From Escherichia phage PhiNW-B1, in the sequence record PQ476010.1: 40,478 nt of DNA. The stretch is one strand, 5' to 3'. How positions within the stretch are numbered: the stretch's first letter is position 1; the number at the start of each line of letters is the position of its first letter. Positions 811 to 21,037 of the stretch are shown here, one piece after another. The notes below the pieces were generated by a model. It was not told where the DNA came from, searched no databases, and was given only the letters and a program-made list of their open reading frames with translations. Both the position numbers and the translations under genes were made by a program.

Positions 811-1196
811 TGCTAACCGACTTTACTTACTCAGATGGGAAGTTGTTCAGGAAGGGACGCGAAGTCGGCTCAATGGACAACCACGGGTATCTAAGGACTA
901 CGGTCAACTACCGTAAGTATCTCGTACACCGTCTAATCTACAAGCTACACAACCCTGAGTTCGACCTTGAGTCAGACCTCGTTATTGACCACATCAACCG
1001 CGACCGAACAGACAACAGGATTGAAAACCTTCGGGCTGTGACTAAGGCTGAAAACAACAGGAACAGGGACCTACCGAGAGGCGTGTCTTATTGCAAACAG
1101 ACCGGGAAGTGGAAGGCTATCCAACCTCGCTGGCTCGGTCGATTTGATACTGAACAGGAGGCCATAGATGCAGTTAACGCCGCAAGAGCGGAATGA
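810..1196 (+). CDS. HNH homing endonuclease with C-terminal AP2-like DNA-binding region
   Basis: motif [28 protein letters not shown] (HNH); C-terminal GVSY...WKA...LGRF..EQEAIDA; RBS AAGGAG; ATG overlaps 18.5 stop (ATAATG). Confidence 0.8.
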
Positions 1197-2931
1197 GGCA
1201 GTAACCAATCGGATGAAAGAAGACTTCGTGTTCTTCTTATTTGTCCTCTGGAAAGCACTTAGCCTACCAGTACCAACCAGATGCCAGATAGATATGGCCC
1301 GTAAGCTCTCCGCTGGGGACAACAGGCGCTTCATCCTACAGGCGTTCCGTGGTATAGGGAAGTCCTTCATTACGTGTGCCTTCGTGGTCTGGAAGCTATG
1401 GAATAACCCAGACTTGAAGTTCATGATTGTGTCGGCCTCAAAGGAACGAGCCGATGCTAACTCCATCTTCATCAAGCGAATCATCGACCTCATGCCTCAG
1501 CTTCGGGAACTCAAACCTAAGCAGGGGCAGCGAGATGCGGTTATCAGCTTCGACGTTGGACCAGCCAAGCCAGACCACTCACCTTCGGTTAAGTCCGTTG
1601 GTATCACTGGTCAGTTGACTGGTAGCCGTGCTGACATCCTGATTGCCGATGACGTGGAGGTTCCGAACAACTCAGCGACTCAGGCTGCCCGAGACCGTCT
1701 GTCAGAGCTTGTGAAAGAGTTCGACGCTATCCTGAAGCCGGGAGGTACAATCATCTATCTGGGTACTCCTCAGAACGAGATGACCTTGTATCGTGAGCTG
1801 GAAGGCCGTGGGTACACCACTACTATCTGGCCTGCTCGTTATCCACGCGACAGGAAGGACTGGCAGTCTTACGGCGACCGTCTGACTCCTATGCTTCAGG
1901 CAGAGCTTGAAGAGGACCCTGAGTCCTTCTACTGGCGTCCTACCGATGAAGTACGATTCGATGATACGGACCTGAAGGAACGTGAGCTGTCCTATGGTAA
2001 AGCTGGCTTCGCTCTACAGTTCATGCTTAACCCTAACCTAAGTGATGCCGAGAAGTACCCTCTGAAGCTCCGTGACCTTATCGTAGCAGACTTGGACCCA
2101 GCGTCTAGCCCAATGGTCTACCAATGGCTTCCTAACCCTCAGAACAAGCGTGAGGACGTTCCTAACGTTGGACTCATGGGTGACTCATACCACACGTATC
2201 AGACTGTAGGTTCTGCCTTCAGTTCGTACACCCAGAAGATTCTGGTCATTGACCCTAGTGGTCGTGGTAAGGATGAAACTGGCTATGCGGTACTGTATCA
2301 GCTCAACGGCTACATCTTCGCTATGGAAGTTGGTGGTATGCGTGGTGGTTATGAAGACTCTACGCTGGAAGCACTAGCTAAGATTGGTCGTAAGTGGAAG
2401 GTCAACGAATACGTCATTGAGGGTAACTTCGGCGATGGTATGTACCTTGAGCTATTCAAGCCTGTAGCGGCCCGTATCCATCCTGCTGCTGTAACTGAAG
2501 TGAAGAGTAAGGGTCAGAAAGAACTCCGCATCTGTGACGTTCTGGAGCCTATCATGGGGTCTCACCGACTTATCGTTAACGCTGCTGCTATCGTCCAAGA
2601 CTACCAGTCAGCCTCTGATAAGGATGGTGTGCGTAACCCTATCTACTCTCTCTTCTACCAGATGACCCGTATCTCTCGTGAACGTGGAGCCTTGGCACAC
2701 GATGACCGACTTGATGCGCTGGCTATCGGTGTACAGTTCTTCGTTGAGTCGATGGCTAAGGATGCCAACAAAGGCGAACGTGAAGTCACTGAGGAGTGGC
2801 TGGAGGAACAGATGGAGAACCCACGGAAAGGCTTCGAGTCCATCCACACTGAGTTCTGGGACAATGGGGTCCGGGTGACTCACGATACGGACGACGAGCT
2901 GGGACTAGGGTCATACGTTACGTTCCACTAG
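1168..2931 (+). CDS. 19: DNA maturase B / large terminase subunit (T7 gp19-like)
   Basis: 587 aa; strong similarity by recall to T7 gp19 ([49 protein letters not shown]); RBS AGGAGG 6 nt upstream. Confidence 0.95.
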
Positions 2932-2940
2932 CTTAATGAA

Positions 2941-2989
2941 TAACTATAGGTGAAAACTGCATGAATACGCAGTTAGTAACCTATAGTTA
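2941..2989 (+). repeat. 49-nt palindrome (11-bp perfect outer stem TAACTATAGGT/ACCTATAGTTA with nested 6-bp stem) immediately after gene 19
   Basis: arms 2941-2951 and 2979-2989 are exact reverse complements; inner AACTGC/GCAGTT 2954-2959 and 2970-2975. Confidence 0.6.
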
Positions 2990-3025
2990 CTACCAGTCTA
3001 ACCTACTGTTTTACAAGGAGTTTGG

Positions 3026-3048
3026 ACTTAACTATCACTATAGGGAAG
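3026..3048 (+). promoter_or_regulatory. phage RNAP promoter (phiOR-like), +1 G at 3043
   Basis: ACTTAACTATCACTATAGGGAAG matches the 23-bp consensus repeated 11 times in the window; located between gene 19 and 19.5 as phiOR is in T7. Confidence 0.75.
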
Positions 3049-3227
3049 ACCCCCGGTTACTTATAGTATTACTGTAGTGAATATACATATGCAGACTTTA
3101 TGCAAGACCTTAGGAGGCAGACTCCGAGTTCTTACCTAAGGCTTGCACCGATGGAAGGAGGTGATATTAATCATAATACCTCCAATACAGATAGTCACAG
3201 ACCATAGATACAGGAGGTATGTAGCAT

Positions 3228-3386
3228 ATGGCAAAGACCAAAGCTGTACTTAAAGCTCTGGCGACCAATCGAGCTACATACAGGTTTCTTGCTGCTGTTC
3301 TACTTGCTGCTGGCGTTACTGCTGGAAGTCAGTGGGTCGGGTGGGTCGAGACTCTCATATGTTCTCTGGTGTCTGAGTGTCATTAA
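3228..3386 (+). CDS. 19.5: small membrane protein (gp19.5-like)
   Basis: 52-codon ORF MAKTKAVLKALATNRATYRFLAAVLLAAGVTAGSQWVGWV...; RBS CAGGAGG 9 nt upstream; below the ORF-track size cutoff. Confidence 0.5.
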   Translation: MAKTKAVLKALATNRATYRFLAAVLLAAGVTAGSQWVGWVETLICSLVSECH

Positions 3387-3421
3387 CGCCGTAATGGTAA
3401 CAATCAACGAAAGGAGGTAGT

Positions 3422-3490
3422 ATGGACGAAGAGTCTTACGGTTCGTTCTCTGAAGAGGACTATAAGACGGAGTGGGAATACGCACATTGA
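3422..3490 (+). CDS. 22-codon acidic mini-ORF (MDEESYGSFSEEDYKTEWEYAH), existence uncertain
   Basis: strong RBS AAGGAGG 4 nt upstream of ATG; no homolog recalled. Confidence 0.2.
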   Translation: MDEESYGSFSEEDYKTEWEYAH

Positions 3491-3494
3491 AGAC

Positions 3495-3535
3495 CTAAGG
3501 TCAGTTCATAGCTGACGCTACTCTACTGACCTTAG
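3495..3535 (+). promoter_or_regulatory. hairpin (10-bp perfect stem CTAAGGTCAG/CTGACCTTAG) downstream of 19.5
   Basis: arms 3495-3504 and 3526-3535 are exact reverse complements, 21-nt loop. Confidence 0.4.
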
Positions 3536-3610
3536 CTACTGTAGTCAAGGACTTTAGGTAACACCTTAAGAGAAGCTCACTTAGTGTCATCCTACTTATT
3601 GGTCTATCCT

Positions 3611-3650
3611 AGTGTCGCCTGACCTACGGTCCTTGACCTACAGTGGCTGT
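3611..3650 (+). repeat. short-repeat array (3 copies of GRCCTACRGT) on the right side of the terminal repeat (SRR-like)
   Basis: GACCTACGGT 3611-3620, GACCTACAGT 3625-3634, GGCCTACAGT 3641-3650. Confidence 0.8.
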
Positions 3651-3698
3651 GGCCTACAGTAGTGACGATGAGTTTTGGACCAAAAGTTTGAGACCACA

Positions 3699-3915
3699 TC
3701 TCACAGTTCAAGAACCTCAAGTCTCCCCATAGGCCCTCTTTAAGTCCAGACCAAATGCCCTACCAGTTACTGCTCCTTGCAGTCACAGCCAGTCTATCAT
3801 AAGGTTGGACCGATGGTCAAGACGTTAGGTCGACGATAGGTCTAGGCTATGGCTTAGGGAAGGACGATAGGTGGTGACTATTGGTCTGTCTTTGAGTCTC
3901 TATCTGTATCAGACC
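3699..3915 (+). repeat. putative terminal-repeat segment at the concatemer junction (single copy here); boundaries approximate
   Basis: starts TCTCACAGT...TCTCCCCATAGG resembling the T7 left end TCTCACAGTG...TTCCCCCATAGG by recall; flanked by short-repeat arrays on both sides; contains TATCTGTAT near its end. Confidence 0.45.
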
Positions 3916-3920
3916 ATAAG

Positions 3921-4010
3921 TCACTAACCTACAGTCTCACTAACCTACAGTCTCACTAACCTACAGTCTCAATCATAAGACACCAACACCTACAGTCATA
4001 GACCTACAGT
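3921..4010 (+). repeat. short-repeat array on the left side (3 perfect tandem 16-mers TCACTAACCTACAGTC, then 2 more ACCTACAGT copies; SRL-like)
   Basis: units 3921-3936, 3937-3952, 3953-3968; ACCTACAGT again at 3988-3996 and 4002-4010. Confidence 0.9.
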
Positions 4011-4121
4011 TACTAGACACAAAGCTATAGACTTAAGGTCAAAGACATGTTAGTCAAAGACTATATCCTATTACACCATGGGGCCGACGATAGCTTAATC
4101 AATATTATTTCAAATTACCTA

Positions 4122-4150
4122 TTGACTATAGGTCTAGACTATGGCTTAAT
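4122..4150 (+). promoter_or_regulatory. candidate host sigma70 early promoter (TTGACT-17-CTTAAT)
   Basis: -35 TTGACT 4122-4127 (identical to T7 A1 -35), weak -10; inference. Confidence 0.3.
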
Positions 4151-4262
4151 AGCTTCCGTCAACACGACACGGCAACAACCGGATAGTGAAGACGCCTGGT
4201 CATCCCGGTTAAGTAGACAGCCTGATAAGTCATACGAACAACAGGCAGATGACAGAAAGTAG

Positions 4263-4291
4263 TTGACAAGAAGTAAGACTTAAAGTAGTAT
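4263..4291 (+). promoter_or_regulatory. candidate host sigma70 early promoter (TTGACA-17-TAGTAT)
   Basis: consensus -35 TTGACA 4263-4268, 17-bp spacer, -10 TAGTAT 4286-4291; upstream of first early gene. Confidence 0.45.
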
Positions 4292-4418
4292 GTACCACAT
4301 CAACACGAAACAACGGTGAAGCCTAACACTGAAACAGGCTAGCACGGCGACGACAGCCAGTGCGAATGCTCTTTAACAATCTGGATAACTCTTAATGTGC
4401 GCCGATAGCGACTAACTA

Positions 4419-4450
4419 CAGGGCCTTTTAGTCTACATCTGAAGGCCCTG
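4419..4450 (+). promoter_or_regulatory. hairpin (9-bp perfect stem CAGGGCCTT/AAGGCCCTG), candidate RNase III site before first early gene (R0.3-like)
   Basis: arms 4419-4427 and 4442-4450; followed by ACTGATAGTCACTAAC, which recurs at 4768-4783. Confidence 0.4.
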
Positions 4451-4473
4451 ACTGATAGTCACTAACTTAACGG

Positions 4474-4728
4474 ATGGACACTATGAAACACTTAAGCACA
4501 ATCACTAATCGCAATGAAGTATTCGTGAACACTAAAGGTTATGCGTGGATTCAGCTTAAAGAGATGAGAGGAGCGCGTCACCGTGTGGTAGTTCGCAAGG
4601 TATCAAGCAAGCCGTTCAGCAACTACAGCGTAGATACTATGCGTATAGACAACGAGACTTACCTGATAGACTCGCAGATAACCGTGCGTCCTACAGCGGG
4701 CATCTCAGCTCCTTATTTCGCTAACTGA
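4474..4728 (+). CDS. hypothetical early protein (84 aa)
   Basis: ORF in early region upstream of ocr; no homolog recalled. Confidence 0.55.
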   Translation: MDTMKHLSTITNRNEVFVNTKGYAWIQLKEMRGARHRVVVRKVSSKPFSNYSVDTMRIDNETYLIDSQITVRPTAGISAPYFAN

Positions 4729-4745
4729 GAGTGATTAACTACAGG

Positions 4746-4783
4746 TCGTTAGACTGATAGCGGCCTGACTGATAGTCACTAAC
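4746..4783 (+). promoter_or_regulatory. second copy of early hairpin element (stem CAGGTCG/CGGCCTG plus ACTGATAGTCACTAAC)
   Basis: 7-bp stem with one G-U; shares 5' GA(C/T)TAACTACAGG and 3' CCTGACTGATAGTCACTAAC with element at 4410-4467. Confidence 0.35.
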
Positions 4784-4811
4784 ACATAATTAACTTTGAG
4801 AGGATATAACT

Positions 4812-5315
4812 ATGGAACGTAATGCTAACGCATACTATGAGCTGCTGGCTGCAACCGTTGAGGCATTTATCGAGCGTATTCAGTACGACCACCTGACTCA
4901 AGATGATGACTACAGCGATGCGCTGCATGAGGTCGTAGACGGTCAGGTTCCACACTATTACCACGAGATTTTTACGGTGATGGCTGCTGATGGTATAGAC
5001 CACGAGTTCGAAGACTCTGGGCTGATGCCTGAAACCAAGGACGTAACGCGTATACTACAAGCTCGCATCTATGAGGCGCTTTATAACGATGTGTCTAATA
5101 GCTTGGATGTAGTCTGGTTTGAGGCTGAAGAGGCAGACGAAGAGGATGAATATTGGGTAGTTGACGCTAAAACAGGCGCAATAATTGTGCAAGCTGTAGC
5201 TCTTGAGGTCGCTACTGCATGTGCCAAGGTCAACTATGCAATAGGTCGCCACCTGAAGGTGGAAGACATCAATGATAACGTAGTGTTCGACCCTGCGGCT
5301 GAGGACTGCGAGTGA
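4812..5315 (+). CDS. ocr: Ocr-like anti-restriction DNA mimic (T7 gp0.3 homolog) with about 54-aa C-terminal extension
   Basis: N-terminal ~113 aa align by recall to T7 Ocr ([35 protein letters not shown]); 167 aa versus 117 in T7. Confidence 0.85.
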
Positions 5316-5464
5316 TGGTAACTTATGGTCTCTGCCAGCACCACGTCGCCAACGCCCGGCTTATGGTCAAGACCGGGCGGTTAACCCATGATGAGACTAT
5401 GCGTCTCCTGAAGGTGGTCTACAAGCGCCGCAAGCGCATACACGACAGTTTGCACGCTGAGTGA
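5315..5464 (+). CDS. hypothetical small basic protein (49 aa)
   Basis: ATG overlaps ocr stop (TGATG); [49 protein letters not shown]; below track cutoff. Confidence 0.4.
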   Translation: MVTYGLCQHHVANARLMVKTGRLTHDETMRLLKVVYKRRKRIHDSLHAE

Positions 5465-5471
5465 TAAACGA

Positions 5472-5496
5472 GAGGTCACTACTGATAGGTGGCCTC
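5472..5496 (+). promoter_or_regulatory. hairpin GAGGTCAC / GTGGCCTC, member of the AGGTCA/TGGCCT hairpin family
   Basis: arms 5472-5479 and 5489-5496 pair with one G-U wobble. Confidence 0.35.
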
Positions 5497-5530
5497 AAAG
5501 ATTACCACTTACATTGATAGGAGAATTACT

Positions 5531-5698
5531 ATGAAATTTACAATCATCGCACTTTACGTAACCATTATTCTATCTTGGCTTACTGCGGTGCTCACTGATG
5601 GTAACGCATTACGACTGGGCTGGCTGGCAGTGGACATTATATTCTCTCCGGTAGGTGTCGTGCGCGGTATCTTGATGTGGATTGGACTGGCAGGATAA
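5531..5698 (+). CDS. small hydrophobic early protein (56 aa, predicted membrane)
   Basis: ATG 5531 preceded by AGGAGA 6 nt upstream; track ORF 5489 begins at a GTG without RBS. Confidence 0.5.
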   Translation: MKFTIIALYVTIILSWLTAVLTDGNALRLGWLAVDIIFSPVGVVRGILMWIGLAG

Positions 5699-5701
5699 AC
5701 T

Positions 5702-5899
5702 ATGAGTCTTGCACTATTGATAGCCATAGGCTATGGACTTATCGCCTACGTGCTGGTGAGAGACATCAACAAAGCGCGTAAAGTCTACAAATTCAACTAT
5801 GTACGTCTGGGCCGCTGGACTGTACGTCAACCTAACGGACGATTCATGCGCAACTTAGCGAACGTCTGGGATATAGCAACTATTGGGAGCAAACTGTAA
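5702..5899 (+). CDS. small early protein with N-terminal transmembrane helix (65 aa)
   Basis: MSLALLIAIGYGLIAYVLV hydrophobic N-terminus; tightly packed after previous gene. Confidence 0.5.
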   Translation: MSLALLIAIGYGLIAYVLVRDINKARKVYKFNYVRLGRWTVRQPNGRFMRNLANVWDIATIGSKL

Positions 5900-6159
5900 T
5901 GAAAACCGTATACATTAACAAACCATCTAGCCATAGCCGTGTAGAGCAAATAGAGCGTGACATGTTCTTACATCGCCGCATGAGGGCTGAGGGCCATAAG
6001 TACGAACTGATGAGTCTGGCGTTTGGTGGACGACCGATCACTGACGATGGTAAACTTTTAGTCTCAGGCTGGAAGGCGATAGACCAACGGTCAACCATCA
6101 AGCACACGACTCACGGTGACTTCAGCCATCTCCACGCTAACCCACTGATATGCAAGTGA
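5899..6159 (+). CDS. hypothetical early protein (86 aa)
   Basis: ATG overlaps previous stop (TAATG); no homolog recalled. Confidence 0.55.
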   Translation: MKTVYINKPSSHSRVEQIERDMFLHRRMRAEGHKYELMSLAFGGRPITDDGKLLVSGWKAIDQRSTIKHTTHGDFSHLHANPLICK

Positions 6160-6164
6160 TTATG

Positions 6165-6187
6165 ACTTAACTATCACTATAGGACTC
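6165..6187 (+). promoter_or_regulatory. phage RNAP promoter immediately upstream of the RNAP gene, +1 G at 6182
   Basis: ACTTAACTATCACTATAGGACTC matches the window consensus. Confidence 0.65.
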
Positions 6188-6256
6188 AAGGTCTAAGACT
6201 CCAAGTGAAAGACCAAAGAGACTTTAAGTGAAAGACTAATAACAAGGACTTTAAGT

Positions 6257-8938
6257 ATGAGCGTCATCTCTATTGACAAACACGACTTCTCTGATGTGTC
6301 GAACGCCATTGAGCCGTTTAACCTGCTGGCTGACCACTACGGGCAAGACCTTGCAGTCAAACAGCTTCAGCTTGAGCATGAGGCCTACACTGAAGGTGAG
6401 CGACGTTTCATCAAGAACCTTGAGCGTCAGACTGAGCGCGGGGAACTGGCAGACAATCAGGTCGCCAAGCCTTTGATGCAGACTCTGGTTCCTAAGATTG
6501 CGCAAGCCGTCAAGGAGTGGCACGAAGGTCCAGACGGGAAGCTGTCAACCTCTCGTCCTAGCGTAGCGTTCACCATGTTGAGCACTGAAGAGAAGGCCGT
6601 CAAGGACCGCTCTCTTCGCATCTCCTGCGAGTCTGCTGCGGTTATCATACTGAAGGTCATCCTCTCCAAGCTGGTCAAGCCTGAAGGGATACCGATTACA
6701 CCGATGGCCTCCGCGATAGGTCGCACACTTGAGGACGAAATCCGCTTCGGTCGCATCCGTGACAAGGAGAAGGAGCACTTCAAGAAGGCGATAGCTGAGA
6801 ACTTGAACAAGCGAGCTGGGGCATCCTACAAGAAAGCCTACATGCAAGCGGTCGAGGCCTCCATGTTGGAGCAAGGACAACTGGAAGATGCGTGGGGAAC
6901 TTGGAGTCCGACCGAGGCTGTCCACGTTGGCATCAAGATGCTTGAGATTGTCATCCAGTCAACACAACTGGTCGAGCTTAAGCGGTACGGTGCTGGCAAT
7001 GCAGCGGCTGACGTAGAGATGGTCCACCTGTCAGACTTCTGGGTCAAGAAGATGGCACAACGCGGATTTAGCCTTGCGGGTATCGCCCCAGTCTACCAAC
7101 CTTGCGTCGTTCCACCTAAGCCGTGGACCGGTGTCGTAGGCGGTGGGTACTGGGCCAAAGGTCGCAGACCATTACCACTGATTCGCTTAGGGTCTAAGTC
7201 TGCGGTGGCACGTTACGAAGACGTGTATATGCCTGAAGTCTATGACGCTGTTAACATCATCCAGAATACACCTTGGAAAGTGAACAAGAAGGTTCTGGAC
7301 GTGGTGAACATGGTCGAGAAGTTGAACAACACGCCTATTGATGACATCCCTCAGATGGAGCCACTGAAGCCTGAAGAATATGCGGGTGAGACTGAAGAGG
7401 AACTCAAGGCGTGGAAGAAAGCGGCTGCTGGTATCTATCGCCGCGAGAAGGCCAGACAGTCACGCAGATTGTCACTGAGCTTTATCGTGAACCAAGCTAA
7501 CAAGTTCTCTCAGTTCAAGGCCATCTGGTTCCCGTACAACATGGACTGGCGCGGTAGAGTCTACGCTGTGCCGATGTTCAACCCTCAGGGTAACGACATG
7601 CAGAAGGGTCTCCTGACTCTGGCAGTCGGTAAGCCTATTGGTGCTGATGGTTTCAGATGGCTGAAGGTCCACGGTGCAAACTGTGCGGGTATTGATAAAG
7701 TAACCTTCGAGGAGCGCATCAAGTGGGTGGAAGATAACCACGACAACATCATGGCTACCGCTAAGGCACCGATGGACAGCATTGAGTGGTGGGGTAAGTT
7801 AGACTCTCCGTTCTGCTTCCTAGCGTTCTGCTTCGAGTATGCTGGCGTAATGCATCACGGATTGTCTTACTCCTGCTCGCTGCCGATAGCATTCGATGGG
7901 TCCTGCTCTGGGATTCAGCACTTTAGCGCGATGCTTCGTGATCACATCGGTGGACATGCAGTAAACCTGACGCCTTCCGGTAAGGTCCAAGACATCTACC
8001 GCATCGTGTCTGACCGCATTGAGGAAGAGCTTAAAGTCCTGCTGGTTAACGGCACGGACAACGAGATGGTAACTCACGAGGACAAGAAAACTGGTGAGAT
8101 TACCGAGCGTCTCAAGCTGGGGACACGAGAGCTGGCCCGTCAGTGGCTGACCTACGGTATGTCACGAAAGGTCACTAAGCGTTCGGTCATGACTCTGGCC
8201 TACGGGTCGAAAGAGTACGGCTTCGCAGACCAAGTTTACGAGGACATCGTGATGCCAGCGATTGACTCAGGGTCTGGCGCTATGTTCACTGAACCAAGCC
8301 AAGCATCTCGCTTCATGGCTAAGATGATTTGGGAAGCTGTGAGTGTGACCGTAGTTGCTGCGGTTGACGCGATGAAATGGCTTCAGGGTGCTGCCAAGCT
8401 GCTGGCGGCTGAAGTGAAGGACAAGAAGACGGGTGAAATCCTGAAGCCTTGCCTTCCGGTACACTGGGTCACACCTGATGGGTTCCCGGTCTGGCAGGAA
8501 TACCGCAAGAAGGATACCACTCGTCTGAATCTGATGTTCTTAGGGTCATTCAACCTTCAGCCTACCGTCAACAAAGGCACGAAGAAAGAGCTGGATAAAC
8601 ACAAGCAGGAGTCAGGCATTAGCCCGAACTTCGTCCACTCACAAGATGGTAGCCACCTGCGCAAGACTGTAGTCCACACGCATCGCAAGTATGGCGTGAT
8701 GTCATTCGCAGTGATTCATGATAGCTTCGGGACCATCCCGGCTGACGCTGAATATCTGTTCCGTGGTGTCCGTGAGACGATGGTCGAGACCTACCGCGAC
8801 AACGATGTGCTGCTTGACTTCTACGAGCAGTTTGAATACCAGCTTCACGAGAGCCAGCGCAATAAGTTGCCAGAGCTTCCGAAGAAAGGTAAACTGAATA
8901 TCGAAGACATCTTGTCTTCAGACTTTGCATTCGCTTAA
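6257..8938 (+). CDS. 1: single-subunit DNA-dependent RNA polymerase (T7 gp1 homolog)
   Basis: 893 aa; extensive identity by recall to T7 RNAP (AIWFPYNMDWRGRVYA, NPQGNDM.KGLLTLA, DGSCSGIQHFSAMLRD, HDSFGTIPADA, C-terminal FAFA). Confidence 0.98.
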   Translation: MSVISIDKHDFSDVSNAIEPFNLLADHYGQDLAVKQLQLEHEAYTEGERRFIKNLERQTERGELADNQVAKPLMQTLVPKIAQAVKEWHEGPDGKLSTSRPSVAFTMLSTEEKAVKDRSLRISCESAAVIILKVILSKLVKPEGIPITPMASAIGRTLEDEIRFGRIRDKEKEHFKKAIAENLNKRAGASYKKAYMQAVEASMLEQGQLEDAWGTWSPTEAVHVGIKMLEIVIQSTQLVELKRYGAGNAAADVEMVHLSDFWVKKMAQRGFSLAGIAPVYQPCVVPPKPWTGVVGGGYWAKGRRPLPLIRLGSKSAVARYEDVYMPEVYDAVNIIQNTPWKVNKKVLDVVNMVEKLNNTPIDDIPQMEPLKPEEYAGETEEELKAWKKAAAGIYRREKARQSRRLSLSFIVNQANKFSQFKAIWFPYNMDWRGRVYAVPMFNPQGNDMQKGLLTLAVGKPIGADGFRWLKVHGANCAGIDKVTFEERIKWVEDNHDNIMATAKAPMDSIEWWGKLDSPFCFLAFCFEYAGVMHHGLSYSCSLPIAFDGSCSGIQHFSAMLRDHIGGHAVNLTPSGKVQDIYRIVSDRIEEELKVLLVNGTDNEMVTHEDKKTGEITERLKLGTRELARQWLTYGMSRKVTKRSVMTLAYGSKEYGFADQVYEDIVMPAIDSGSGAMFTEPSQASRFMAKMIWEAVSVTVVAAVDAMKWLQGAAKLLAAEVKDKKTGEILKPCLPVHWVTPDGFPVWQEYRKKDTTRLNLMFLGSFNLQPTVNKGTKKELDKHKQESGISPNFVHSQDGSHLRKTVVHTHRKYGVMSFAVIHDSFGTIPADAEYLFRGVRETMVETYRDNDVLLDFYEQFEYQLHESQRNKLPELPKKGKLNIEDILSSDFAFA

Positions 8939-8952
8939 CAGGAGAGAGAGCT

Positions 8953-9168
8953 ATGAAATATGCACACAAGCATACTGGCGTTAATGGTGGGACTCAAATC
9001 GTGACCGTAACAGAACACAACGGCAAGGGTCTGGTGAAGACCACGGTCATCCCTACCGAGATGTCCAAGCAGCTTAACATCCCGTTCAAGACTCTTGTAG
9101 ATCTGGTCGAGTCCAGCCACGAGAAGTACCTGAAGGACGCAGTGTCCAAGCTGGAGCAGGCCAAATGA
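8953..9168 (+). CDS. hypothetical protein (71 aa)
   Basis: RBS AGGAGAGAG; position just after gene 1. Confidence 0.55.
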   Translation: MKYAHKHTGVNGGTQIVTVTEHNGKGLVKTTVIPTEMSKQLNIPFKTLVDLVESSHEKYLKDAVSKLEQAK

Positions 9169-9242: not shown

Positions 9243-9265
9243 CCTAAACTATCACTATAGGATTA
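9243..9265 (+). promoter_or_regulatory. phage RNAP promoter (phi1.1-like), +1 G at 9260
   Basis: CCTAAACTATCACTATAGGATTA. Confidence 0.75.
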
Positions 9266-9307
9266 GACTCAAGGTCATGACTCAAAGTCGTGGCCTTCAT
9301 GATTAAC
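9264..9307 (+). promoter_or_regulatory. conserved hairpin element (AAGGTCA / TGGCCTT), candidate RNase III site R1.1-like
   Basis: arms 9271-9277 and 9291-9297; flanks TAGACTCAAGGTCAT ... GTGGCCTTCATGATTAAC shared with copies at 268 and 16633. Confidence 0.4.
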
Positions 9308-9338
9308 CCTAAATAAACACTACTGGAGATTTAACCGT

Positions 9339-10835: not shown

Positions 10836-10874
10836 AACCCAGTGGTCTTAGGACTGCTGGGTTTCTTTGCTTTG
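10836..10874 (+). terminator. early terminator (TE-like) after ligase gene
   Basis: stem 10838-10845 / 10854-10861 (8 bp with 2 G-U) followed by TTTCTTTGCTTTG; position as T7 TE after gene 1.3. Confidence 0.55.
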
Positions 10875-11867: not shown

Positions 11868-11954
11868 ACCGAGTGAGTGGTGCCGGGAGATGTACGAGAA
11901 GACTCTCAACCAGGACTACATTACGTTATACAACCAATGGAAGGAGCGTGGTCT

Positions 11955-12113
11955 ATGACTGACGTAGAAAAGAAATACATCGTGGAGCTTGAGGGTCGCG
12001 TTCAGTCATTCGAGGTTCCGGTGTACGCAAAGTCTCTTGAAGAGGCTACCCTGAAGTCCCAAGAGTATGAGGACGCTGGTTTTGTGGTCGGACGAATCCG
12101 TCCTGAGACCTAA
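11955..12113 (+). CDS. 2: gp2-like inhibitor of host RNA polymerase
   Basis: [14 protein letters not shown]...GF.V.R.RP resembles T7 Gp2 (SFEVPIYAETLDEA...GFEVTRVRP) by recall; ATG 11955 with AAGGAG 8 nt upstream; track ORF starts at an upstream GTG lacking an RBS. Confidence 0.75.
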
Positions 12114-13321: not shown

Positions 13322-13776
13322 TGACTACCTGTAAAGACCTTGAAGTTGGAACACGTTACAGATTCTCAAAGAACACCCTGTTGAATAACCCCAGCTTCAC
13401 TGATGCTGTTTTCGAAAAGCGAGAAGACCATAGCGTAATTGTGGAGAAGGGGTGGCATCCTGAGGATTATATCGGTGAGACTACCAGCTGGAATGGTCAC
13501 GAGACCTACAGTGTAGAAGTTGTTGACCAGCCTCAAGTCCTGCCAGCTTCGAGCGTACCTCCTGTGACTGTGAAGCGTGAAGTCCTGACAATCGACAAGA
13601 TTGGTGTAGGCCAGACGTTCATCGTCCATGGAAAGCCTGAAGAAGTTTACGTGAAGATTAGCAACTCACACGTCTTCAACCATAAGCGTCTCCAGATGCA
13701 CACCACGGACGCACAACGCTTCACCCAGCACCTGAATCTAGTGGTCGTAGAATTGGTGGTGTACAATGGTAAGTAA
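13321..13776 (+). CDS. hypothetical protein (about 151 aa) between endonuclease I and amidase
   Basis: ATG 13321 with AAAGGAG 7 nt upstream; no homolog recalled. Confidence 0.6.
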   Translation: MTTCKDLEVGTRYRFSKNTLLNNPSFTDAVFEKREDHSVIVEKGWHPEDYIGETTSWNGHETYSVEVVDQPQVLPASSVPPVTVKREVLTIDKIGVGQTFIVHGKPEEVYVKISNSHVFNHKRLQMHTTDAQRFTQHLNLVVVELVVYNGK

Positions 13777-14224
13777 GGTACAGTTCAACCCACGGTCCCG
13801 GACTGACGCTATCTTCGTTCACTGTTCGGCTACCAAGCCAGAGATGGACATCGGGGTAGAGACCATCCGTATGTGGCACAAGCAGCAAGGCTGGCTGGAC
13901 GTAGGCTACCACTTTATCATCAAGCGCGATGGTACTGTGGAAGAGGGTCGCCCGGTAAACGTCGTAGGGTCACACGTTAAGGACTGGAACTCACGGTCTG
14001 TAGGCGTCTGCCTTGTAGGTGGAATTGACGCTAAGGGCAAGTTTGAAGCTAACTTCACTCCGGACCAGATGAACTCCCTACGCAACAAGCTGGCTGACCT
14101 GAAGTCCCTGTATCCTCAGGCAGAAATCAAAGCACATCATGATGTAGCACCAAAGGCGTGTCCAAGTTTCGACTTACAGCGCTGGCTGTCTACTAATGAG
14201 CTGGTCACTTCCGACCACGGTTAA
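13766..14224 (+). CDS. 3.5: N-acetylmuramoyl-L-alanine amidase / T7 lysozyme homolog (gp3.5)
   Basis: VQF..R.RTDAIFVHCSATKP...WLDVGYHFIIKRDGTVE.GR....GSH.K..N..S.GVCLVGGID.KGKF.ANFTP.QM.SLR...HH.VAPKACPSFDL.RW...ELVTSD.G. Confidence 0.95.
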   Translation: MVSKVQFNPRSRTDAIFVHCSATKPEMDIGVETIRMWHKQQGWLDVGYHFIIKRDGTVEEGRPVNVVGSHVKDWNSRSVGVCLVGGIDAKGKFEANFTPDQMNSLRNKLADLKSLYPQAEIKAHHDVAPKACPSFDLQRWLSTNELVTSDHG

Positions 14225-16632: not shown

Positions 16633-16673
16633 CTAGACTCAAGGTCATTCATAGCGAGTGGCCTTTATGATTA
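16633..16673 (+). promoter_or_regulatory. conserved hairpin element (AAGGTCA / TGGCCTT) upstream of DNA polymerase gene
   Basis: arms 16641-16647 and 16659-16665; third copy of the TAGACTCAAGGTCAT...GTGGCCTTTATGATTAA element. Confidence 0.4.
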
Positions 16674-16693
16674 AACTAAAGCGAGGATTAACC

Positions 16694-18865
16694 ATGTTTG
16701 ACCTTAAGAGTATCTGGGGTTCTGACATCGAGACCAACGGTCTCCTTGATACAGTCTCCCAGTTTCACTGTGGGGTCCTGATTAACGCCGAGTCGAATGA
16801 GACCCTTAAGTATGGGGTAGCTCCGATGGTCGGTATCGTCGGCGGCTTCAAAGAGTATGTTCATAAAGTGGAAGAGATTGCCGCATCACCTGATGGTATG
16901 CTGGTATTCCATAACGGTATCAACTATGACGTCCCGGCTATAGACAAGCTGAAGCGTTTGTACTTTGGGAAACGCTTTAACTTCCAGAAACATAAGATGA
17001 TTGATACCTTGGTGCTGGGACGCTTGATGTATCCAAACATTAAGTTCTCAGACATGGGCGCGGTGAAAGCTGGTCGTCTGCCACCTAAGATGATGGGACG
17101 CCAGTCTCTTGAGGCTTGGGGCTATCGTCTCGGTGAGATGAAAGGTGAGTACAAACACGATTACGTTGCCAAGTGCAAGGCTGAAGGTATCGAATATAAG
17201 GCTGGGGACGAATGGTTGTTCCCGTCTCAGGAGATGCTGGACTATAACGTTCAAGACGTTGTGGTCACACTGGCGTTGTTCAAGAAGTTCCTGACTGACA
17301 AGTATTACTTCCAGTCTGAACAGTTCGCTTTCGACCAGATTTATGCGTTGCGTCTGGAACATGATGCTGCGTGGACCTGTGCGAAGATGGAGCGTAACGG
17401 CTATCCGATGAACACCGAGATGGTCGAAGGCTTATATCGTGAACTCACTGTCAAACGTGCAGAGTTGCTGGACAAGCTGCGTTCGACTTTCGGTAGCTGG
17501 TACGCACCAAAGGGAGGCAAGGAGTTCTTCAGGCATCCACGGACAGGTAAGGACCTTCCGAAGTATCCGAGGGTCGTGTATCCTAAGGTCGGTGGCATCT
17601 TTAAGAAGCCGAAGAACAAAGCTCAACGCTTAGGTCTTGAACCTTGTGAACGCGATACGCGAGACACGATGGAAGGAGCACCATTCACGCCAATCACTTA
17701 CGTTGAGTTTAATCCGGGAAGCGGAGACCACTTAGCGAAAGTCCTGATGGAGCGTGGCTGGGAGCCTGTTGACTTCACTGACACCGGGAAACCTGTAGTC
17801 GATGACGAGACGTTGGAACACGTTAAGTTACCAGACGCAGAGGCTCAGGCTTGCGTAGAGCTGGTCCGTGAGTATCTGGTAGTCCAGAAGCGCATCGGAC
17901 AGGCTGCTGAAGGTAAGAACGCATGGTTGAAACTTGTAGGTCCAGACGGACGTATGCACGGTTCAATCAACCCTTGTGGAGCAGTAACCGGACGTGCGAC
18001 CCATAGTTCACCAAACATGGCTCAGGTCCCGGCTAACGGTGCTCCATACGGTGAGACTTGCCGTGGTGCTTTCGGTGCAGCGTGGAACAAGAAGGACGGT
18101 AAGCCAGACCCTTGGATTCAAGTAGGCGTGGATGCTTCAGGTCTTGAGCTTCGTTGTCTGGGGAACCGAGCGGCTCCGTTTGATGGTGGCGCCTATGCGA
18201 AGACTGTGGTCGAAGGTGACATCCACTGGGCCAACGCAGTCAACGCTGGGTTAGCACCTAACGTCCCACGCAATAAGTCCAGCCACGACCATGATGCTTT
18301 CCGTAACAACGCTAAGACGTTCATCTATGCGTTCCTATATGGTGCAGGGGCCGCGAAGATTGGACTGATAGTTGGCGGTGGTAAGAAGGAAGGTTCAGCT
18401 CTCATGAAGAAATTCATTGAGGGTACACCAGCCATTAAGGACCTCAGGGAAGCTGTCAGTAATACGTTAATCTCGGACTCTAAGTGGGTAGACGGTGAGA
18501 ACATCGTGAAGTGGAAACGCCGCTGGCTGAAGGGTCTGGATGGTCGTCGCATTCACATCCGGTCCCCGCACTCAGCACTTAACGCCCTACTTCAGGGTGA
18601 CGGTGCGGTGGTCTGTAAGCACTGGATAGTCGAGACCGAGCGTATGCTTGAAGAAGCTGGCTATGTCCACGGCTGGGAAGGTGACTTTGCGTACATGGCT
18701 TGGGTTCACGATGAGCTGCAAATTGCGTGTCGTACTCAGGAGATTGCCGAAGAAGTCGTCAAGATTGCTCAACTTGCTATGCGTAAGGTGGGCGAGTTCT
18801 ATAACTTTAAATGCGTCCTTGACACCGAAGGGAAGATTGGACCAACGTGGAAGGAGTGCCATTGA
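16694..18865 (+). CDS. 5: DNA polymerase (T7 gp5 homolog, family A)
   Basis: SDIETN.LL..V.QFHCGV, GSWY.PKGG.E.F.HPRTGK.LPKYPR, NAKTFIYAFLYGAG, YMAWVHDELQ; start at ATG 16694 (RBS GAGGA) since track GTG start lies inside the hairpin. Confidence 0.97.
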   Translation: MFDLKSIWGSDIETNGLLDTVSQFHCGVLINAESNETLKYGVAPMVGIVGGFKEYVHKVEEIAASPDGMLVFHNGINYDVPAIDKLKRLYFGKRFNFQKHKMIDTLVLGRLMYPNIKFSDMGAVKAGRLPPKMMGRQSLEAWGYRLGEMKGEYKHDYVAKCKAEGIEYKAGDEWLFPSQEMLDYNVQDVVVTLALFKKFLTDKYYFQSEQFAFDQIYALRLEHDAAWTCAKMERNGYPMNTEMVEGLYRELTVKRAELLDKLRSTFGSWYAPKGGKEFFRHPRTGKDLPKYPRVVYPKVGGIFKKPKNKAQRLGLEPCERDTRDTMEGAPFTPITYVEFNPGSGDHLAKVLMERGWEPVDFTDTGKPVVDDETLEHVKLPDAEAQACVELVREYLVVQKRIGQAAEGKNAWLKLVGPDGRMHGSINPCGAVTGRATHSSPNMAQVPANGAPYGETCRGAFGAAWNKKDGKPDPWIQVGVDASGLELRCLGNRAAPFDGGAYAKTVVEGDIHWANAVNAGLAPNVPRNKSSHDHDAFRNNAKTFIYAFLYGAGAAKIGLIVGGGKKEGSALMKKFIEGTPAIKDLREAVSNTLISDSKWVDGENIVKWKRRWLKGLDGRRIHIRSPHSALNALLQGDGAVVCKHWIVETERMLEEAGYVHGWEGDFAYMAWVHDELQIACRTQEIAEEVVKIAQLAMRKVGEFYNFKCVLDTEGKIGPTWKECH

Positions 18866-20976: not shown

Positions 20977-21037
20977 TTAGGACCTAAGATATGACTATAA
21001 GATAGACTTTAGTCTTAACTTAAAGAGGAGATTCAAG

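Follow-up and report, generated by a model that had tools for sequence, protein, structure and literature searches.

A probable promoter for the phage's own RNA polymerase immediately upstream of the polymerase gene in the K1F-like Escherichia phage PhiNW-B1

The RNA polymerase gene (gene 1) of phage T7 is preceded by a minor E. coli promoter, promoter C, and the T7 record shows no T7 promoter between phiOL (405) and phi1.1A (5848). In the T3 record the homologous interval is annotated with promoter C and the RNase III site R1. In both phages this genomic slot directly before gene 1, the interval between gene 0.7 and gene 1, is served by a minor host promoter and not by a phage promoter, while phiOL, located 2.6-2.8 kb upstream of gene 1, lets the phage polymerase into the early region. 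The original prediction for the locus studied here assumed that T7 has no promoter of its own in the gene 1 slot, which agrees with the T7 record. It also held that T7 gene 1 is transcribed only by host RNA polymerase, which is too absolute because phiOL of T7 and T3 precedes the whole early region. No cognate promoter was found before gene 1 in T7, T3, KP32 (Przondovirus), P694 (Berlinvirus) and PPWS4 (Pektosvirus), and a phiOL-type site lies near the left end in T7, T3, KP32 and PPWS4.

A polymerase gene placed directly behind its own promoter is found in other T7-like phages. gh-1 (Ghunavirus) harbours phi1, a 'putative gh-1 RNAP promoter' at 939-961 with the full gh-1 consensus, ahead of gene 1 at 1058. 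NOI (Ghunavirus) and PPpW-4 (Phutvirus) display the same layout, in which a full-consensus cognate promoter ~100-140 nt before the polymerase gene is followed by a structured leader. The arrangement has also been engineered in T7. Dubendorff and Studier in 1991 reportedly constructed a T7 'autogene', with the polymerase gene under control of its own promoter. When T7 gene 1 is relocated so that a T7 promoter drives it, auto-amplification is expected, as modelled by Endy et al. 2000 (cited in PMC3737178). In LUZ100, phage-specific promoters were defined from ONT-cappable-seq data, and one of these, phi1, lies directly upstream of the polymerase gene. In the feed-forward model proposed for this phage, the initial polymerase comes from host read-through and goes on to activate its own promoter (PMC10134795). 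Promoter phi-A8 of phiA318 precedes the kinase and polymerase genes, an arrangement that the authors read as autoregulation (PMC4099482).

The DNA analysed here is a stretch of 40,478 nt from Escherichia phage PhiNW-B1 (PQ476010.1), referred to below as the window. Megablast of positions 5000-9000 retrieved coliphage K1F and many K1F-like phages (Kayfunavirus) at 93-98 % identity. Position 1 of K1F aligns with window position 3699, and the window is therefore a circularly permuted complete genome of ~40.5 kb, derived from a linear genome and with its terminal repeat collapsed. A phiOR-like promoter (+1 = 3043) lies ahead of the left end, as does the gene for the terminase large subunit (Table 1), and window 3035-3764 aligns to the right end of Ro103C3lw. 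The gene 1 product shares 99.1 % identity with K1F gp1 and 62.5 % with T7 gp1. RefSeq records call this T7-like polymerase 'N4-like RNA polymerase'. In the record of Enterobacter phage 04_vB_Eclo_IJM (L124) the polymerase gene (2805-5453) is annotated as many short fragments, which suggests frameshift sequencing errors and not biology. No homologue of the gp0.7 kinase was found in the window. IME278, Dev2, P7124 and SFP20, also members of Kayfunavirus, carry a kinase gene and have kept the gene 1 promoter as well.

Table 1 Features of the window discussed in the text
Feature	Position	Strand	Remarks
Phage RNA polymerase promoter, K1F-type	6165-6187 (-17 to +6)	+	ACTTAACTATCACTATAGGACTC; predicted +1 = G6182
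+1 positions of the 11 promoters	3043, 6182, 9260, 10927, 12126, 14477, 20971, 23791, 24787, 29193, 36907	+	
Next phage promoter	9243-9265	+	+1 = 9260; followed by canonical RNase III-type hairpin
Leader of the predicted phage-polymerase gene 1 transcript	6182-6256	+	75 nt
GACTCAAGGTC	6183-6193	+	Identical to 5' half of T7-type RNase III site motif
Candidate irregular hairpin in host-made read-through RNA	6171-6234	+	5' arm, promoter core; 3' arm, GAGACTTTAAGTGAAAG
Two tandem 21-nt direct repeat units	6196-6216, 6219-6239	+	86 % identical
Ribosome-binding region and start codon	6244-6259	+	AAGGACTTTAAGTATG; invariant in 29/29 distinct sequences
Gene 1, single-subunit RNA polymerase	6257-8938	+	893 aa; from ORF list
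Early ORF, counterpart of K1F gp0.38	5899-6159	+	86 aa
Sigma-70-like host promoter, best of the early region	4263-4291	+	TTGACA-17-TAGTAT, 10/12 matches
TE-like intrinsic terminator for host RNA polymerase	10836-10863	+	12-bp stem, then T-run
gp2 homologue, host RNA polymerase inhibitor	11952-12104	+	tblastn with T7 gp2: 44 % identity, E = 1e-9
gp3.5 lysozyme homologue	13769-14221	+	tblastn with T7 gp3.5: 68 % identity, E = 2e-70
Terminase large subunit	1168-2931		Precedes left end

A search of the window for the promoter core, the 14-mer CTATCACTATAGGA, with at most 3 mismatches gave 17 matches against 3.3 expected. With a weight matrix, 11 promoter sites were found in the whole window with scores of 34.9-42.5 bits, all on the plus strand, and the next best site scored 13.7 bits. 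The gene 1 promoter reached 36.9 bits in this matrix, which was built with all sites. Circularity was avoided by rebuilding the matrix from the other ten sites, leaving the gene 1 promoter out. Its score was then 32.4 bits, mid-range of the set, against a background maximum of 13.8 bits in 50 shuffled genomes and 15.6 bits for the next genomic site. The promoter is intergenic. It begins 5 nt past the stop codon of the early ORF, in the 97-nt gap that separates this ORF from gene 1, and the predicted leader runs from +1 to the gene 1 ATG at 6257-6259. The claim that a phage promoter is situated 75 nt before gene 1 is borne out by this position, by membership of the 11-site family and by the leave-one-out score, compared to the maximum of the shuffled genomes. 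Its description as a 'full consensus' promoter holds from -13 to +2, where all positions match, and fails at -14 only, which is T where the majority of the promoters have A; T is also present at -14 of promoters 3043 and 29193. The start at the predicted +1, GGACTC, is class-II-like. Further along the window a weak promoter-like site of 13.7-15.6 bits was noted at 20983-21005 (GACCTAAGATATGACTATAAGAT, predicted +1 = 21000). The strong promoter 20971 is located 29 nt upstream, and the weak site may be a degenerate tandem copy of it.

The element is already known, as it is conserved across the genus, is annotated in PE3-1 and is of a kind described for gh-1, LUZ100 and phiA318. A 123-nt query over the promoter region matched 218 phage records, while a polymerase of at least 80 % identity was found in about 220 records. 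The promoter lies 74-81 nt before gene 1 in every relative compared, and the phages that carry it infect E. coli, Citrobacter, Enterobacter, Salmonella, Klebsiella, Cronobacter and Shigella. K1F, Pipis, PE3-1, Peacock, SH3, NS1, Dev2, ST57, IME278 and P7124 all have the promoter and the leader, as do 21 IMG/VR contigs. A 16-mer scan of IMG/VR yielded mostly unrelated contigs and one further distinct Kayfunavirus leader variant (L034). The 23-bp element is identical in K1F, Pipis, PE3-1, SH3 and Peacock. In K1F (AM084414/DQ111067) the promoter is the same as that of the window in 23/23 positions and the 75-nt leader differs by one base. The window represents a further isolate of the K1F-like group, with no substantial difference at this site. 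The site also matches the consensus that Scholl and Merril (2005) gave for K1F, in the form in which it is quoted in the ASO2B record; in that record the gene 1 promoter itself is unannotated. The PE3-1 record (NC_024379; L118) carries a promoter annotation on exactly this 23-bp stretch (2874-2896). The name given there, 'host RNAP promoter', is probably a mistake. A literature search retrieved no Kayfunavirus transcriptome and no specific description of K1F or Kayfunavirus promoters. Because the layout is conserved, has been present in published genomes since 2003-2005 and has been discussed for other T7-like phages, the locus opens no new question.

Conservation is uneven along the region. 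Among 29 distinct sequences, 7 of the 23 promoter positions are variable, compared to 31 of 56 in the middle part of the leader and 0 in the final 16 nt through the ATG. The segment from +1 to +12 (GGACTCAAGGTC) is nearly invariant, with variants of 1 or 2 bases in a few of the 29 sequences.

A switch of promoter specificity within the genus bears on the function of the site. Polymerase residues 748 and 756 of T7 and T3 read bases -8 to -11. In Ro103C3lw (L026) and contig L025 all 11 syntenic promoters, that of gene 1 included, read AACCCTCACTATAGG instead of AACTATCACTATAGG, and share the substitutions -10 T>C and -9 A>C. At two positions the polymerases of these two carry D and R, compared to N and N in the window and in K1F. 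The two residues align with N748 and R756 of the T7 specificity loop (N748D and N756R in T7 numbering), and the AT-rich recognition loop is different as well. Within the genus, AACTATCAC has thus changed into AACCCTCAC at all 11 promoters, which makes them T3-like at -11 to -8. The gene 1 promoter has followed this switch, which would not be expected of an inert relic. The switch in Ro103C3lw is the most useful by-product of the analysis, as it provides a clean internal control for selection on the site as a promoter. It is accordingly very improbable that the site is a relic without function or resembles the consensus by chance. Substitutions at -2 or -3 in some lineages could be taken in that sense, but A at -2 is normal in the functional T7 promoters phi1.5, phi1.6, phi3.8 and phi4c. 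Furthermore, a relic or chance match is at odds with a leave-one-out score far above the shuffle maximum (32.4 versus 13.8 bits), with genus-wide conservation of the site inside an otherwise variable intergenic region, and with substitutions at -10 and -9 that accompany those in the polymerase specificity loop.

The sequence evidence makes it very likely that the phage's own polymerase uses 6165-6187, immediately before its gene, as a functional promoter of class II type. Transcription of gene 1 would be initiated by the host. Host RNA polymerase would start at one or more early promoters, e.g. that at 4263-4291, and would read through the early genes and gene 1 to TE (10836-10863), giving the first phage polymerase molecules. 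The promoter at 4263-4291, whose homologous position carries a host promoter annotation in ASO2B, probably gives rise to the first gene 1 mRNA. The TE-like terminator follows the ligase gene, the same position as that of TE in T7 and T3. Terminator-like sites were found neither from the early promoters to gene 1 nor between +1 and the ATG, so that at the sequence level the host promoter would provide an independent first source of polymerase, with no terminator until TE. The class II pause signal ATCTGTT has no copy between the early region and gene 1, and the nearest (8754) is inside gene 1. The copies at 8754, 14925 and 39579 were rejected as pause signals, their number being at chance level and a downstream T-run being absent.

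The newly made phage polymerase would then initiate at G6182, producing a gene 1 mRNA with the 75-nt leader, and would continue into the class II genes. A transcript from G6182 must contain gene 1 because the leader lacks terminator-like sites, and transcription of the polymerase gene by its own product is therefore the expected result. The original prediction that the phage polymerase could transcribe its own gene is supported by the membership of the promoter family, by the conservation and co-variation of the site and by the lack of a terminator. Polymerase synthesis would in this way amplify itself, and would be independent of the host polymerase once gp2 has inactivated the latter. Limits on the loop are probably set by the gp3.5 lysozyme, as polymerase inhibitor, and by the non-optimal GGACTC start, to which substitutions at -2 or -3 of the gene 1 promoter would be added in some lineages. 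According to the T7 record the lysozyme of T7 is an inhibitor of the polymerase, and the gp3.5 homologue is the expected brake on the polymerase of this phage. The in vivo start at G6182, the extent of the feedback and its limitation by lysozyme are all deduced from sequence features.

Of the systems described above, gh-1, NOI and PPpW-4 share the layout of the locus but differ in promoter sequence and specificity, in a longer leader and in the other early genes upstream. In gh-1, moreover, the annotated R1 lies upstream of the promoter and not downstream. LUZ100 and phiA318 are distant relatives; the arrangement in LUZ100 is coupled to a lysogeny cassette and the promoter of phiA318 is also ahead of a kinase gene. 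The engineered T7 autogene and the T7 with displaced gene 1 likewise have the polymerase gene behind its own promoter and auto-amplification as the outcome, but these are artificial constructs, whereas the arrangement in the window is natural, conserved and placed inside a normal early operon.

Polymerase output need not be the main selected role of the promoter, because the promoter also drives everything downstream. It has to be considered, as a rather unlikely alternative, that the promoter works but that polymerase amplification is not what it was selected for. As the leftmost entry point of the phage polymerase it would be a functional stand-in for phiOL, starting class II transcription together with fast genome internalisation, or priming DNA replication in the manner of the origin promoters phi1.1A/B of T7 and phi1.05 of T3, and self-transcription would be a by-product. 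Consistent with this, the window has no other phage promoter, and no phiOL-type site, between the left end (3699) and gene 1. T7, T3, KP32 and PPWS4 have the left-end site, and their gene 1 slot lacks a cognate promoter. The leader is A+T-rich (63 % A+T, 37 % G+C and 64 % purine, in a genome of 50 % G+C), as are the origin regions beside T7-group promoters, and in T3 an origin is annotated right after phi1.05. However, promoter 9260 is also inside the cell once polymerase exists, so that little would be gained for DNA entry, and in PPpW-4 a left-end site and a gene 1 promoter seem to coexist, so that the two are not simple alternatives. A role as entry point would also leave room for feedback, gene 1 being part of every transcript that starts at G6182.

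The leader between the promoter and gene 1 had been noted for its direct repeats, and these are exact. AAGTGAAAGAC occurs exactly twice in the whole window (6203 and 6226), and so does GACTTTAAGT (6220 and 6247). Both copies of AAGTGAAAGAC are contained in the tandem 21-nt units, which span 6196-6239, and the second copy of GACTTTAAGT sits within the ribosome-binding region. Tandem Repeats Finder reported nothing for 6100-6300, because there are just two imperfect 21-nt copies. For the further suggestion that the repeats modulate expression no supporting evidence was obtained: the middle of the leader is its most variable part (31/56), and the predicted structure comes without compensatory change. 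An epsilon-type translational enhancer (TTAACTTTA) is absent as such from the leader; ACTTTAAG occurs twice, solely in the leader.

A second, doubtful alternative assigns the region chiefly or also to RNA processing or structure, as an equivalent of R1, the RNase III site of T7 and T3. When host polymerase reads through, the promoter core in the resulting RNA would form the 5' arm of a hairpin and GAGACTTTAAGTGAAAG the 3' arm. The direct repeats would be a consequence of this pairing, since GAGACTTTAAGTGAAAG includes one copy each of AAGTGAAAGAC and GACTTTAAGT, and host-made and phage-made mRNAs would differ in 5' structure. R1 of T3 is annotated in exactly the same interval, and the T7 interval before gene 1 folds into a hairpin similar to that of the window. 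The leader opens with GACTCAAGGTC, and its RNase III 5' arm, ACUCAAGGUC(AU), is the same as that of the sites at 271, 9266 and 16636 and of T7 R1.1. The predicted hairpin of 64-67 nt has a free energy of -17.4 kcal/mol (z = -2.6, equalled in 1 of 200 shuffles). An analogous hairpin is predicted in two other leader variants, so that a z near -2.6 is found in three diverged versions of the leader. Furthermore, in the clade with an 81-nt leader, TATCACTAAAG and CTTTAGTGATA form a perfect 11-nt inverted repeat that includes the A at -2 of this clade. As a leftward promoter the inverted copy CTTTAGTGATA was rejected, being off the consensus at -17 to -11 and at +2 on the minus strand.

Several findings speak against such an R1-like element. 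The canonical 3' arm, (G)UGGCCUUUAUGAUU (GTGGCCTTTATGATTAA), is absent from the gene 1 leader, where without it only GGUCU/AGACC (5 bp) and CUC/GAG can pair. The folds of longer contexts and of the whole leader are no more stable than those of shuffled sequences (z = 0.0 and +0.78), and Rfam gave no match in 5800-6600 at a permissive threshold. RNAalifold on 15 distinct leader versions returned a consensus hairpin with compensatory change in 0 of 15 pairs, several pairs being broken by natural variants. Pairing also cannot explain the co-variation with polymerase specificity, and at most it adds to the function as a promoter. An R1-like structural role of the modelled hairpin is possible to this extent.

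The module at 9260 shares with T7 phi1.1A-R1.1 the layout of a promoter, GACTCAAGGTC within the first 20 nt and a hairpin, and the gene 1 module differs from both in having no canonical 3' arm and a shorter, irregular hairpin. The window holds three canonical T7-type RNase III hairpins (268-330, 9262-9320 and 16633-16700), of the form GACTCAAGGTCAT...GTGGCCTTTATGATTAA and nearly identical to T7 R1.1. The sequence ACTCAAGGTC occurs 4 times on the plus strand, against about 0.04 expected, and its reverse complement GACCTTGAGT 3 times on the same strand (963, 10386 and 22488), with at least one of these copies inside the ligase gene.

Three lineages deviate from the consensus close to the start, and do so at the gene 1 promoter alone. 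The clade with the 81-nt leader (L033, L119, L123, L032 and L018-L023) has A at -2, while its other promoters keep T. SFP20 (L125) has G at -2 and ASO2B (L003) has T at -3, both at the gene 1 promoter only. As A at -2 is usual in the T7 class II promoters phi1.5, phi1.6, phi3.8 and phi4c, these variants are probably weaker but not dead. They would fit selection for a modest feedback gain, with three events only to go by. The GGACTC start and the T at -14 may likewise make the gene 1 promoter weak. Given the substitutions in three lineages, selection may favour low activity, and the gain of the feedback loop could be small.

The two functions of the region could also be combined. It is quite unlikely, though worth stating, that the promoter is built into the 5' arm of the hairpin, such that host-made mRNA has an R1-like element which phage-made mRNA lacks, and that A at -2, T at -3 and G at -2 reflect a trade-off between the two. 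The A at -2 of the 81-nt-leader clade does have a perfectly complementary 3' arm. If this were true, there would be two gene 1 mRNAs with different fates, and the substitutions at -2 in the 81-nt-leader clade, at -3 in ASO2B and at -2 in SFP20 would tune the feedback gain against RNA structure.

The preferred reading remains that of a promoter from which the polymerase transcribes its own gene. If the loop works as proposed, K1F-like phages naturally run the 'autogene' circuit that is avoided by T7, and their polymerase output would become independent of host transcription very early. This would be of relevance to the timing of infection, to phage engineering, K1F being used as a chassis in therapy and synthetic biology, and to models of T7-type expression.
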